64,000 bases of DNA. Origin: a virus (Duplodnaviria > Caudoviricetes). Position numbers and translations under genes: made by a program. The notes under the pieces were generated by a model, which saw nothing but the letters and a program-made list of their open reading frames with translations, made no database searches and had not been told where the DNA came from. The stretch is from IMG/VR virus record IMGVR_UViG_3300000439_000009, positions 1 through 64,000 of that record. One strand, given 5' to 3'. Shown here one piece after another: positions 12,847 to 36,379 of this stretch (within the stretch, counting starts at the first letter, position 1; each line of letters begins with the position of its first letter).

Positions 12847-13488
12847 ATGAATTTAAAAAATAAGTTCCATCTAACACTAGTTGTATTGATAACTTTAGGA
12901 AGTACGTTGTGGGGAATACCTCATACTGTATTTTCTACAGATACAGCGCAGGCACTTGACTTTAAAAATCAAGCTGTCTATAATAAAAATATATCTAATA
13001 TATATAATAATATAAATATAAAATATATATCTATAAAATTATATAATATAAATATATATAATAATAATAAAAGAATAAAAATGAAATTGAGTAACTCACT
13101 CAACTTCAAAGAAAAAGTTGAAATCTTAATGTATTCCATTAAGCAAGTAGAATCACATGGCAGGTACAAAGCTAAATCAAAGTGGTCAGATGCTTGTGGA
13201 GCATATCAGTATATGCCAATAACTTGGAATAACTATAAAGGTTTCAAAACAGCTTGTCTAGCTCCCGAATGGGCGCAGGACTCTCGCATGAGAGGCGAGA
13301 TACAATATCTCTGGACTAAGTACCATGATTGGGAAAAAGTCATCGCAAGCCATTACTTGCCAGGATATGCTGCTAATAAGGCTAAGTGGAATACTCGTTA
13401 TTACCGCAACCAGCCTACTATTAGAGAATATGTTAGTAATGTAGAAACAACTATGAGCAATGTAGTGCAAAGCTTAGCGACTACATAA
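12847..13488 (+). CDS. Membrane-anchored lytic transglycosylase-like protein with low-complexity N/I/Y/K linker
   Basis: N-terminal hydrophobic segment; IKQVES...ACGAYQYMPITW...AQD lysozyme-fold motif. Confidence 0.75.
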   Translation: MNLKNKFHLTLVVLITLGSTLWGIPHTVFSTDTAQALDFKNQAVYNKNISNIYNNINIKYISIKLYNINIYNNNKRIKMKLSNSLNFKEKVEILMYSIKQVESHGRYKAKSKWSDACGAYQYMPITWNNYKGFKTACLAPEWAQDSRMRGEIQYLWTKYHDWEKVIASHYLPGYAANKAKWNTRYYRNQPTIREYVSNVETTMSNVVQSLATT

Positions 13489-23237: not shown

Positions 23238-23324
23238 ATTACGAAGGGGTATAAAATCTCCCTAAAGTTAGACATTAAGATGATATATGTCAAACCCTTT
23301 ACGATTAAACAAGTATAGGCTATG

Positions 23325-25856: not shown

Positions 25857-26059
25857 ACCCTTACCAAGATGTGCCCCCAGTCAGAGTCTCTCGTACACTT
25901 TACGGTATGGACAATCTGGGGGTACGCATTGGGTACGTAATGTGCGGGGATTGCGAAAAGCACATGTCAAATTGTAATTGTGAAGGTGGAGTAAAGGCTC
26001 CATCTCAAATAGTGAGAGCACTAGACAAACTCGTTAGAATATGATAGGATAGGGGACTT

Positions 26060-26765
26060 ATGCAAAGTATAAACCAAAAGTATGTTAAACAGACTAATGA
26101 TATGTTACTTAACGCAGAGTCTAATCTAGAACTAATTGCTACTCAAATACACAGATTACCTGTTAGAGAGCAGCATAGATATCTTAGACTTGTTTTAAGT
26201 TATATAGATGTATTGTCTAAAGCCAAGTTGGCTACTATGCGTGATTCTATTGCGCTATGCAAGGAACTAATGGAAGTAATTAACCTATACTATGAGGAGA
26301 CAGAATAATGGGAGCAAGAACTAATTATACAATCATCACTACATCTAACCCCGCCCAAAACCTAAACGTTTATGCACACTGGGATGGCACAGAGTCAGTG
26401 GCGATTATGCAGGCTGCTATCAAGGCCGCTATGCCCCGTATCAAGACACGTGATACATCCTATGCCACTCGTATCCTAGTGGACCAGCTGACCAAACACG
26501 GGCGGGATTCTGAGACAGGCTATGGTATCTACATTGGAGAAGAAGTAGATCATGAAGAGCAATATGAATATAAGGAGATTAACTTAATTAATAATACAGT
26601 TACAGTTGGCTCTATGACATTCGAACTTAATCAATTTGTTGAGGTGCTAGTATGAGCCATAACCATAGTTGGGAATGCTCAGATGTCCCCGCAAATTATT
26701 ACTGTGCTTGTGGATCAGAGGGATACTATAACTCAGTTGACAAGACTATAAATGCAGTGGTATAA
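26060..26765 (+). CDS. Last early genes (26060..26308, 26308..26655, 26652..26765)
   Basis: Coupled ORFs; TAGACA...TAGGAT promoter at 26022-26050. Confidence 0.65.
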
Positions 26766-26849
26766 TTATACAACGAGATAGGGCGTTCAGGCAAGTCTGC
26801 CAAGTCCATTATAACCTCCACAGGTTCGGGTCCTGTGGAGGTTTTTTTT
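26737..26849 (+). ncRNA. Candidate ~75-nt small RNA with own promoter and terminator
   Basis: TTGACA-18-TATAAT (26737-26766), no ORF, strong terminator 26813-26849. Confidence 0.45.
26813..26849 (+). terminator. Intrinsic terminator closing the early region
   Basis: aacctccacagg-ttcgggt-cctgtggaggtt followed by a T run. Confidence 0.85.
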
Positions 26850-26949
26850 CTTACGAGTTTTTTTTTAAAATGGGATTACGATGGGGGCTAAAAATCTCCA
26901 CGACTTTTATTGGCGGGACATTACGAAGAAGCTTAAAATCTCCCAACAA

Positions 26950-27420
26950 GTACTGGTAATATACCCTATATAAAACATATCAATAATCAAACAATATGTA
27001 TAATAAACTAAAGAAACATAAACACTTATGGACATTTATATAGACATTCTGTCTATTTTTGTCCATTTTTGTGTAGCATATAAAATATGACCACATATGA
27101 CCACATAAACACTTGACACATATAATTTTATGTGTACATGTGGATATACCTGTGGATAACTATATTACGATTTGACACGCCTTATATTATATGGTTTATA
27201 TCATGATATCTATATCTGTGGATAACCTGTGTATAAATTGTGGATAAGGGTATATGTATTCTCCACTATACTCCACTATGCTCCACTTCTATAGGGTCTA
27301 TATGGCTCTATGAAGGGTTATCTATGGGTATTGGGGACGGGACTATGCACAATCCGTACAATAATTGATAGCCCTTATATGCTCGATAGAGCGATATATG
27401 GGTCTACCACAACTTGAACA
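26950..27420. other. oriC-like element: DnaA-box cluster, AT-rich tract, 10-bp direct repeats
   Basis: TGTGGATAA at 27151, 27217, 27239; TGTGTATAA at 27228; near-match at 27139; ATATGACCAC x2 (27085); CTCCACT x3 (27261); no ORF. Confidence 0.7.
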
Positions 27421-27518
27421 TCTTAAATCTATAAGGTCTGATTTGGCTATATTGATCTTATAGCTTCTTGTATAATATAGTTTGGTTATATACCATAGTA
27501 ATACTAGTAGTAGAAGTG

Positions 27519-28079
27519 TCATCTTAATCCCGCCCCTTTTTTAATATTGCATTTGCCATGTGATGGCCTTATATTCTCTATGGTGTCATCTCCACCTTTG
27601 GATAATGGAATAACATGATCCAAATGTAATCCATATTCCCAGCCCTTATATCCAACCCTTTTAGGTAAAGTTAGATCAATTGGCTCTTGACATAAATGAC
27701 AGATTGAGCCATATCTATCCAATACCTCTTCTCTGGTATATGGGCTTTGTATGGCATTTCCTCTAACTTCTCTAAGTCCTCTGCCTCTATCTTTAATTGT
27801 TCTTTCATGTACCCAATGGGCTTTCATGGCTTCTCTACATTCATTACAAGGATCTTCAAACATTCCCCGAACATGCCAATCATAGCCATTTTTAGTTCCA
27901 TGCGTAGGTATATAATTAATTGAATATCTACCCAATTTTAGCATCCTTCGTTTATTAGATTTTTTAGATTCATTCATCTGCCCTTTAGAGGTATTACGAT
28001 ACCGCTTGGTTTTCTCTGCATCTGCTCCTGGATGGCGTTCACGCCATAATCTTGAGCGTTCTGTAGAAGTTAAGGCCAT
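27519..28079 (-). CDS. HNH endonuclease
   Basis: CHLC...LDHVIPLSKGGDDTIENIRPSHGKCN. Confidence 0.9.
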   Translation of the reverse strand: MALTSTERSRLWRERHPGADAEKTKRYRNTSKGQMNESKKSNKRRMLKLGRYSINYIPTHGTKNGYDWHVRGMFEDPCNECREAMKAHWVHERTIKDRGRGLREVRGNAIQSPYTREEVLDRYGSICHLCQEPIDLTLPKRVGYKGWEYGLHLDHVIPLSKGGDDTIENIRPSHGKCNIKKGAGLR

Positions 28080-28294
28080 TTAGATATCTAAATCTTCTTT
28101 ATCTATATCCTCTGTAGCATCCCATTCCCACATAGTTCCCCACCACATATGAGGCTTTAGGAATATGGCTGATATTCTCCCGCAGATATTGCCTATGGTA
28201 TTTAAGATCGGGTTATCCGATCCTTTGATCTGGTTCCAGTTTTCGCTCATTTTTTCTCCCTATGTAGTAATATATGTTGGTGTATAATTACTGT

Positions 28295-28855
28295 ATGACT
28301 GCTATTACAATAATACCAAACTTTATATCTGATGACCAATGCAAAACCCTAATGGATTTTATTGATTCAAATCTTAATTCATTTGAATTTTTAACCGATA
28401 GGCATATTAAACTCTATGGTGAAGATAATTATCATAAAGAAAATAGTCCAGAAATAGATTGGGATTTTCTAAATTCAATTAAAGGTTTAGTTGAATTTAT
28501 AGGAAAAAAAGTTGAAGATGCTGCAAAACTACAGTATGAAGATGACGATGTTCATTTATGTAATCTTTGGTTGTCCAAGCATGTTCCTGGTGCTAAATTA
28601 GCTTTCCATCATGATATAGATCATGGTTTAAATCCATTTATTAAATATAGTTTAGTTCTTTATTTAAATACTATTGAAGATGGTGCTTTAAAGTTTCCAT
28701 TTAGACGATATTCATACAAACCTAATGGTGGAGATTTAGTTATGTTTAAAAGTGGAGATATGTTAAATGGACATCAAGTTGATAAAATAAGCGATTATAG
28801 ATATTCTATACCTATGTTTTTATCAGATAAAACTCACGCTTTATTTAACGTATAG
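28295..28855 (+). CDS. 2OG-Fe(II) oxygenase (prolyl-4-hydroxylase-like)
   Basis: HHD...SLVLYLN...HQV...RYS. Confidence 0.85.
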   Translation: MTAITIIPNFISDDQCKTLMDFIDSNLNSFEFLTDRHIKLYGEDNYHKENSPEIDWDFLNSIKGLVEFIGKKVEDAAKLQYEDDDVHLCNLWLSKHVPGAKLAFHHDIDHGLNPFIKYSLVLYLNTIEDGALKFPFRRYSYKPNGGDLVMFKSGDMLNGHQVDKISDYRYSIPMFLSDKTHALFNV

Positions 28856-35808: not shown

Positions 35809-36078
35809 TTAATTAAGAATACTTTTCTGTGTAGGGACATATTTTATTCCTTCTATTTCACATCGAACCCCAAAGGATTCAATTAACTGTCTGCAAAGTA
35901 ACAAGTACTCCATGATATCTGCTCTCTTATCAATTTCGTATTGCATTATGTTTTCTTCGTATACAGTTAAAGCTAGATAATTTGGCCTGGCTCTTACATC
36001 CATTCTAAGATCTTTAACAGGCATCTTAACTTTTCTAATGGCTTTAGCCATAGATACGTTATAAAATATTTTTTCCAT
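35809..36078 (-). CDS. Hypothetical protein
   Basis: Coupled to whiB. Confidence 0.6.
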   Translation of the reverse strand: MEKIFYNVSMAKAIRKVKMPVKDLRMDVRARPNYLALTVYEENIMQYEIDKRADIMEYLLLCRQLIESFGVRCEIEGIKYVPTQKSILN

Positions 36079-36379
36079 GAATTTTCTTTAGAGTATCCCA
36101 AGTTTCTTTAGTCTTATGTGCATTATTTTGTTTATCTACACGACCAAGATCCATAAAGATCCCGCCACGTACGCCAAATTCTTTCATGGAAACACCCTCT
36201 TTGTAACATTGCTTAATTACTGGACAACTTAAACATACTTCATCAGCAGTTTGTGCCGTAATCTTATCATTTTCGTAATCATCATAAAACCAATTAATGC
36301 TCATGCCTTTGCATGCAGCAAGATGATACCACTTTAGGTCTTCTTCATCAATACCTAATTCTTTAAGAATGCTTGACAT
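36059..36379 (-). CDS. whiB: WhiB-family Fe-S transcription regulator
   Basis: W...AAC...F...VCLSCPVIKQC...FGVRGG. Confidence 0.88.
   Translation of the reverse strand: MSSILKELGIDEEDLKWYHLAACKGMSINWFYDDYENDKITAQTADEVCLSCPVIKQCYKEGVSMKEFGVRGGIFMDLGRVDKQNNAHKTKETWDTLKKIHGKNIL

Follow-up and report, generated by a model that had tools for sequence, protein, structure and literature searches.

The window analysed here, i.e. the whole stretch of 64,000 nucleotides, represents the first 64 kb of a 106,853-bp IMG/VR record (IMGVR_UViG_3300000439_000009; Caudoviricetes), the completeness of which is judged to be 99%. It harbours a gap free of credible open reading frames (ORFs) that includes clustered DnaA boxes, an AT-rich tract and several short repeats, hereafter called the module (Table 1). 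A first-pass annotation made from the sequence alone had described the region as an oriC mimic in a phage with its own replisome. Re-reading of the sequence, together with box and repeat searches, retrieved all of the boxes, the repeats and the AT-rich tract that it listed, but the gap, put at about 670 bp, is in fact ~860 bp long (26656-27518), the last plus-strand ORF ending at 26655. Small ORFs within the gap (26907-27035, 27240-27368 and 27343-27522) were discarded as unsupported; one of them begins inside a box. The converging transcription proposed for the gap holds only approximately. The minus-strand HNH endonuclease gene on the right is an insertion present in the lineage of the window only, and a plus-strand oxygenase gene (28274-28855) comes after it. 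L002 and L003, the closest relatives, have unrelated genes at this place, and homology to them stops at ~27455-27520. The module bounds a 14-kb block of small plus-strand genes in the window.

Clustered DnaA boxes and the surrounding module

All the perfect copies of the DnaA box TTATCCACA in the 106,853-bp genome (n=3) fall within 97 bp, at 27151-27247. With two boxes that have one mismatch each, TTATACACA and ATATCCACA, there are five boxes inside 109 bp, all in the same orientation. A repeat search groups them in a single 12-nt family (AyCTGTGGATAA) with start-to-start spacings of 12, 66, 11 and 11 bp. They form a left pair separated by 3 bp and a triple array with gaps of 2 bp, and the repeat search revealed no long inverted-repeat pair around them. 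A chance origin of the cluster was ruled out using 400 simulated first-order Markov genomes, which had a mean of 1.5 perfect boxes and in no case (0/400) two or more within 100 bp; the Poisson estimate for three perfect boxes in 100 bp is ~1e-6. Across the window as a whole, TTATNCACA shows no enrichment (8 observed vs 5.1 expected). The non-random signal is the clustering of the boxes, not their number across the window. The boxes picked out by the first-pass annotation are thus genuine matches to the DnaA consensus, clustered far beyond chance. TGTGGACAA at 23323 resembles an actinobacterial-type box but was not counted, since it makes up the upstream portion of GGACAAnTGTCAGTG, a promoter motif that recurs.

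Table 1. Features of the module and of its right edge in the window (a single position is the first base of a box)
Feature	Position	Strand	Remarks
Sigma-70-type consensus promoter, TTGACA-N18-TATAAT with TG	26737-26766	+	12/12 matches; kept in L006; precedes the small RNA-like element
Small RNA-like element ending the plus-strand gene block: AGGGCGTTCAGGC..GCCAAGTCCA, then a 10-12-bp hairpin and a U tail	26774-26852 (hairpin 26813-26843)	+	
Composite motif, copy 1, GGGATTACGA-N8-AAAAATCTCC	26872-26899	+	Repeat family D5
Composite motif, copy 2, ACATTACGAAG-N5-AAAATCTCC	26917-26943	+	Repeat search; 2-4 copies in the module of every relative
AT-rich tract, 77-79% AT	26956-27110		Includes T-rich repeats and two copies of ATATGACCAC
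Left DnaA-box pair, ATATCCACA (27139-27147) and TTATCCACA (27151-27159)	27139-27159	-	Pitch 12
Near-match box ATATCCACA	27139	-	One mismatch
Perfect boxes TTATCCACA	27151, 27217, 27239	-	Exact match to the consensus
Inter-box spacer: invariant ATTACGA (27164-27170), TTGACACGCC (27172-27181), promoter-like -10 region	27164-27205	+	
Triple DnaA-box array, TTATCCACA, TTATACACA, TTATCCACA	27217-27247	-	Pitch 11 bp
Box TTATACACA	27228	-	One mismatch
Three 10-bp direct repeats, TATnCTCCACT	27257-27287	+	Most constant element of the module in freshwater relatives
Right part of the non-coding core	27288-27455		Identity of 94-99%, restricted to the closest relatives; no feature recognised
HNH endonuclease gene	27519-28079	-	PF01844, 1.2e-10; right edge of the module, context only

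The boxes are embedded in a succession of other elements. The RNA-like element that ends the plus-strand gene block has a hairpin stem that co-varies, 7 of its 18 predicted pairs still pairing after changes on both sides, and a T-loop-like loop, (G/A)TTCGGG(T/A), that is invariant across seven relatives; no Rfam family was matched in 26000-28500. In addition to the two composite motifs that follow, a third copy of the TTACGAA-N7-9-AAAATCTCC type is found at 23238-23261, in an early cassette. The AT content of the AT-rich tract was measured over 26950-27060. Its T-rich repeats (27047-27075) are three in number with a 10-bp pitch, and the copies of ATATGACCAC start at 27085 and 27095 (27085-27104). 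The spacer between the two groups of boxes is the counterpart of an element, TTGACAttacga-N-TATGCT, present in relatives without boxes. Beyond the triple array, the CTCCACT units start at 27261, 27271 and 27281, again with a 10-bp pitch. The first TATnCTCCACT repeat reads TTCTCCACT and is a DnaA-box look-alike, with two mismatches, in the opposite orientation.

The genome codes for DnaE, DnaB, DnaG, SSB, RecA, a PD-(D/E)XK nuclease and RuvC, which bears out the polymerase, helicase, primase and SSB genes reported in the first-pass annotation, and also for a terminase, a portal protein, a protease, a capsid protein and a ribonucleotide reductase. The closest cultured relatives of its DnaE protein, at 55.8% identity, belong to Streptomyces phages of the Stanwilliamsviridae. 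Read in reverse, the genome of one phage of that family, BillNye, has the same succession of ribonucleotide reductase, structural genes and replisome block. Judging by this synteny and by the presence of a WhiB gene (36059-36379), this uncultured lake phage is an actinophage, and going by WhiB its host would be actinobacterial. Phage-type WhiB homologues (62-67% identical) also occur on two short contigs, L152 and L153, binned to Bacteroidetes/Bacteroidia metagenome-assembled genomes. These contigs, the sole matches of this kind, are probably mis-binned phage DNA.

As in the first-pass annotation, which saw no initiator gene in the window, we recognised none. The whole genome was searched for two families only, Bac_DnaA and Bac_DnaA_C, neither of which matched anywhere; a scan of ~60 larger ORFs, taken from the surroundings of the gap, from the replisome block and from the structural genes, yielded no member of the Rep, O, DnaD or DnaA families. 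The proteins encoded upstream of DnaB match no initiator-like family in ESM Atlas, Pfam or PHROGs, and those around the helicase belong to no known initiator or loader family. The sole candidate for a sequence-specific DNA-binding protein near the helicase is a 171-residue MerR-like helix-turn-helix (HTH) protein (63732-64247), whose gene heads the replisome block. It is 40% identical to, and syntenic with, gp183 of BillNye.

Boxes and modules in related phages

We fetched 17 IMG/VR relatives via the ORF directly upstream of the gap. The box array is identical in the closest ones, L002 and L003, as well as in G007 and in the complete 112-kb record behind L044, and L006, L011, L014, L017 and L018 have rearranged arrays with three or four perfect boxes. 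Conservation of the non-coding DNA exceeds that of its surroundings: between L003 and the window, the core (26955-27455) is 94-100% identical and the flanking ORFs 69-91%. An alignment of six diverged freshwater lineages reveals a fixed order of elements. On the left come the RNA-like element with its terminator hairpin, two GGGATTACGAAG..AAAAATCTCC composites, the AT-rich core and a TTGACA element; on the right follow DnaA boxes around the invariant ATTACGA, tandem boxes and three (A)TTCTCCACT repeats with a 10-bp pitch. The endpoints of the relatives' contigs do not cluster at the module and thus give no hint of physical genome ends there.

In six close freshwater relatives (L007, L008, L009, L010, L012 and L016), the same module is found ~3 kb further downstream without any DnaA box, up to one mismatch and leaving aside the CTCCAC repeats. 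These box-free modules contain ACATTACGAAG repeats, the AT-rich core, the promoter-like TTGACAttacga-N-TATGCT element and the CTCCACT repeats. L015 has one perfect box. Several of the relatives with box-free modules have box pairs or triples in ordinary early-promoter cassettes instead, where they adjoin CRP-like TGTGA-N6-TCACA palindromes and PafBC-type promoters. The orientation of the boxes is not fixed either, as they point to the AT-rich tract in the window, L006 and L014 and away from it in L011, L017 and L018. Gaps of 3 bp between boxes are also found in L010, L016, L004 and the Streptomyces phages Muntaha and Gilson, and triples made of two direct boxes and one inverted box in BillNye, Muntaha, L010, L004 and L017. 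From these comparisons, the boxes are an optional layer on the module, gained, lost and rearranged among lineages. Conservation of the boxes in related phages, on which the first-pass annotation had made its reading depend, is partial: they recur in freshwater and Streptomyces relatives and are missing from the modules of six close relatives.

A blastn search with the gap against 50,697 cultured phage records gave no match, and the cultured relatives were found through their proteins. The equivalent gap of six Streptomyces phages includes two to four perfect boxes. In BillNye, four perfect copies of TTATCCACA are found at 119428-119715, within an essentially non-coding stretch of 1.3 kb at 119.2-120.5 kb that also contains TTACGAA and AAAATCTCC motifs on the other strand. 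This gap is located 7.4 kb from the right end of the genome, 5 kb outside the 2,262-bp terminal repeat, and bounds a terminal block of small genes. The corresponding gaps of Muntaha, TunaTartare, Gilson, Comrade and Ankus are 1.0-1.8 kb long and are unannotated wherever the record is annotated, that of Ankus having no annotation. In each, two or three boxes are grouped head to head or in tandem, and a further TGTGGATAA follows ~250 bp on; in four of the five CTTTACC-type short repeats come after this last box. The motifs of the module (TTACGAA and AAAATCTCC), the boxes and short repeats thus recur together in the Streptomyces phages, and their order is kept in the six freshwater lineages.

Two further observations concern the Streptomyces phages. 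The composite motif TTACGAA-N7-9-AAAATCTCC is kept on the opposite strand (BillNye, L143:19240-19310); it may represent the site of a phage DNA-binding protein, such as the MerR-like HTH protein. The ~250 bp that separate the group of boxes from the last one (L143:19460-19700 in BillNye, with equivalents in L144-L148) are 70-80% conserved across the Streptomyces Loccivirinae and absent from the freshwater relatives. Their only annotation is a hypothetical ORF of 53 residues in BillNye, and they could constitute a structured RNA or a protein-binding platform.

Box arrays in other phages

The exact 31-nt pattern of the triple array, with its 11-bp pitch, is present in at least 120 IMG/VR contigs (L019-L138 among the matches listed). 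Only two of the matches listed are relatives of this phage. Most of the 120 triple-box sites listed (92) lie outside any ORF of at least 80 residues, and the median number of perfect boxes within 300 bp on either side is four. Recurrent neighbours of these listed arrays include a 127-residue protein of no known function and terminase subunits, some arrays being located between the genes for the small and large subunits of terminase.

Among cultured phages, similar arrays are found in T5-like phages, where they lie in the annotated left terminal repeat, KVP40-like vibriophages, microviruses and Arthrobacter phages. The T7-like Shigella phage A7 has an array at bases 105-137, and Stenotrophomonas phage Siara has one in its terminal repeat. 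In Arthrobacter phage Seahorse (L155:1195-1245), four co-oriented boxes, TGTGGATAA, TGTGCACAA, TGTGGATAA and TGTGGATAA, follow each other with a pitch of 11-12 bp. Three of them are perfect, and that genome has no other perfect box; the array lies 50-90 bp from the right end of the genome and is followed by a G-rich run. In the literature searched, we found no description of DnaA boxes in actinophages, and the only paper found that is devoted to phage DnaA boxes is a preprint on T5 (bioRxiv 10.1101/866236).

Possible roles of the module

The label of oriC mimic is only partly supported. As in bacterial origins, the window has a cluster of consensus boxes that are co-oriented with 2-bp gaps, like those of the DnaA-oligomerisation regions of Escherichia coli, and an AT-rich tract on the side toward which the boxes point (PMC8287927, PMC4285127). 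The genuine clustered boxes, the lack of a dnaA gene and the occurrence of boxes in relatives are what stands of the initial proposal. Unlike in oriC, there is no linkage to dnaA or dnaN, no clear run of DnaA-trios and no polarity switch of the GC skew, and the boxes vary in orientation among relatives and are not kept wherever the module is kept. DnaA-trios are defined as three or more (NAN) triplets at most 16 bp from a box, on the correct side (PMC8287927). By eye, TAA AAT TAT on the minus strand, 8 nt beyond ATATCCACA, fits this loose rule, which is easily satisfied in AT-rich DNA, and no GAT/TAG-type repeat is present. The cumulative GC skew, which had been proposed as a check for an origin, reaches a maximum at ~27 kb, the opposite of a classical origin, and this maximum coincides with the converging transcription, from which such a peak is expected. 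The unfixed orientation of the boxes is hard to reconcile with directional unwinding by a DnaA filament, and the six box-free sister modules argue that DnaA is not the indispensable initiator of the module.

The simplest view is that the 9-mers would bind host DnaA, because they correspond to the universal consensus and their 11-13-bp pitch is typical of DnaA oligomer sites. Since the same arrays are found in phages of Gram-negative and actinobacterial hosts, their ligand is more readily conceived as a universal host protein than as a phage-specific binder. Theta origins of plasmids and phages classically combine AT-rich tracts, iteron-like repeats and DnaA boxes. We tentatively favour, at somewhat less than an even chance, the idea that the module is an iteron-type origin at which host DnaA acts as an accessory factor, as it does at P1 oriR, pSC101 and RK2 oriV. 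In these origins and in F oriS, too, a single non-coding block brings together boxes, an AT-rich tract and short direct repeats; the boxes are flexible in number and orientation, and DnaA serves as a helper rather than as the sole initiator. Such an accessory role fits the box-free sister modules. This reading would account for the AT-rich core, the short phased repeats and the strong conservation over 500 bp of non-coding DNA. It would also explain why the boxes can be dispensed with and why no other initiator or candidate origin is seen. The phage lambda pR/ori region offers a further likeness. In lambda, DnaA boxes modulate origin-activating transcription, and host DnaA, acting close to a promoter and an origin of a phage genome, has a modulating rather than an initiating part; lambda differs in encoding O and P beside its origin, and no initiator or loader of these types is recognisable here.

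It is tempting to speculate on how such an origin might operate. The five strong boxes would represent docking sites for host DnaA grafted onto an older, conserved non-coding control module, the short repeats of which would be recognised by a phage factor; the conserved MerR-like HTH protein is a candidate for this role. With DnaA on the phased boxes, bending or melting of the neighbouring AT-rich DNA might be eased, and the DnaB helicase of the phage might be recruited with its help. Rather than being the sole initiator, DnaA would tune the firing of the origin to the initiation state of the host.

A number of observations weigh against an iteron-type origin. The repeats, at 10 bp, are shorter than the typical iterons of 17-22 bp, no rep gene is adjacent, and no cognate Rep gene was recognised among the ORFs scanned. 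The gene for the candidate binder lies at a distance of 36 kb, its product falls in none of the known Rep families, and the phage is apparently virulent, unlike a plasmid. The AT-rich DNA, whether taken at 26930-27050 or at 26950-27060, belongs to the 1-3% of the genome with the lowest stability but does not represent the extreme, which is a 150-bp stretch of a plus-strand gene for a transglycosylase-like secreted protein (12847-13488). In the freshwater phages, the location of the module at converging transcription would send both forks head-on into transcription. As regards skew, BillNye is informative, because the co-oriented genes flanking its box gap provide a transcription-free test of origin polarity, and neither its GC skew nor its AT skew shows a step there. 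Apart from the CTCCACT repeats, every type of motif is also found in ordinary early-promoter cassettes, an observation that suits a regulatory hub just as much. Paradiddles and Peregrin, which are more distantly related, lack a box cluster, and in T5 boxes of a similar kind are found far from the mapped origins (bioRxiv 10.1101/866236). Finally, all boxes in the Streptomyces relatives are of the TTATCCACA type, while the high-affinity DnaA box of Streptomyces and Mycobacterium is TTGTCCACA (PMC4285127).

A rival location for the origin was rejected. The 95% AT stretch at 12950-13100, where two gene blocks diverge, is coding, as it falls inside the transglycosylase-like gene. The 150 bp in question, of up to 95% AT, encode an Asn/Ile/Tyr-rich linker of the protein.

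DnaA is also known as a transcription factor, and the boxes might rather be DnaA operators on a conserved rightward promoter, in a hub at the boundary of early and late regions that would couple phage expression to the growth or replication of the host. The free variation of the boxes in number, orientation and position across lineages is operator-like, and the box pairs of several relatives sit inside early-promoter cassettes, beside the CRP-like sites and PafBC-type promoters. A promoter-like TTGACAttacga-N-TATGCT/TATAAC element is present mid-module everywhere, with the boxes over it or just downstream of it in the box-bearing lineages, and in L006, L011 and L016 a plus-strand gene starts 24-54 bp past the CTCCACT repeats. 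Most lineages, however, have only minus-strand genes downstream, which would leave the rightward transcript without a coding target. In addition, 500 bp conserved above the level of the flanking genes go beyond the needs of a simple promoter, and five phased strong boxes are more than is usual at DnaA-regulated promoters. Such a hub seems to us somewhat less likely than an iteron-type origin but is its nearest rival, and under both readings host DnaA would most likely be an accessory factor on a phage control module. If the 9-mers were recognised instead by a phage protein or another host protein that shares the specificity of DnaA, the use of TTATCCACA rather than of the host-preferred TTGTCCACA in the Streptomyces phages would be explained. 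Head-to-head pairs form palindromes of 20-25 bp, typical of dimeric HTH proteins, and a conserved HTH protein exists. Nevertheless, the spacing within pairs (2, 3, 7 or 15 bp) varies more than a rigid dimeric regulator would allow, the direct arrays have a pitch of 11-13 bp, and the exact arrays are shared by phages of enterobacteria, vibrios and actinobacteria that are unrelated and have no obvious phage protein in common. We consider a binder other than DnaA very unlikely.

The only direct phage precedent comes from T5-like phages, which keep paired boxes far from their origins, in the untranslated injection-stop (iss) region of the terminal repeat (bioRxiv 10.1101/866236). By analogy, membrane-associated DnaA might pause or tether the DNA during entry or just after it, at the inner edge of the early region that enters first. 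Like T5, the phages studied here are apparently virulent, and their large genomes of siphovirus type, 100-130 kb in length, include tRNAs but no dnaA. In both, a long, repeat-rich untranslated region bounds a block of small early genes and contains several consensus TTATCCACA boxes in close pairs, with gaps of 3 bp in T5 and of 2-3 bp in the window and its relatives. The block of small genes bounded by the module in the window, the similar position of the box gap near the right end of BillNye, and the arrays near the genome ends of phages A7, Siara and Seahorse are in keeping with this idea. However, the T5 model is itself hypothetical, blastn of the gap detected no homology to T5 beyond the boxes, and the polymerase of T5 belongs to family A, while that of the window is DnaE. 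The T5 boxes lie in the IRC/IRD inverted repeats of the terminal repeat, whereas those of BillNye are outside its 2.26-kb repeat, and the boxes are missing from sister phages. A role in entry thus appears quite unlikely for the module. The same dispensability counts against a DnaA sink, to which the first-pass annotation had alluded as an alternative. With five strong sites per genome copy, the phage might titrate DnaA or shift its nucleotide state, thereby blocking or deranging host initiation or de-repressing DnaA-controlled genes such as those for nucleotide synthesis. The datA, DARS1 and DARS2 loci of E. coli are clusters of three to five boxes that act on DnaA outside an origin (PMC6868365). 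The DARS core comprises three boxes, II and III in the same direction and I in the opposite one (PMC6868365), and the triples of BillNye, Muntaha, L010, L004 and L017 match this layout. The five boxes of the window are all co-oriented, in contrast, and they belong to a phage genome, not to a chromosome. Neither IHF nor Fis sites were identified, no search for evidence of IHF sites having been made. As neither phasing nor a fixed place in a conserved module would be needed for titration, we regard this last proposal as highly improbable.

DnaA-box clusters on phage or plasmid DNA are already known as a kind, and the value of the present case resides in the occurrence of box-bearing and box-free sisters. 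On a broader scale, consensus DnaA-box arrays might be widespread and largely unrecognised 'plug-in' cis-elements of virulent phages without dnaA, including T5-like, T7-like, KVP40-like, Arthrobacter, Streptomyces and many uncultured phages. Sited in non-coding control regions, in many cases close to the early region or to the end that enters, they would couple origin firing or early development to host initiation, and in the present family DnaA would load the phage DnaB. We put this generalisation forward as a conjecture, possible if doubtful as a whole.

Little is known about where and when replication begins in large virulent phages that supply a helicase, a primase and a polymerase themselves, especially in actinophages. 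The conserved non-coding module described here is defined in a group that includes easily grown Streptomyces phages such as BillNye, Muntaha and Gilson. The box-bearing and box-free sisters provide a natural comparison, and the cultured relatives make the role of DnaA testable. Given the arrays found in other groups, the question appears to extend well beyond this phage family.

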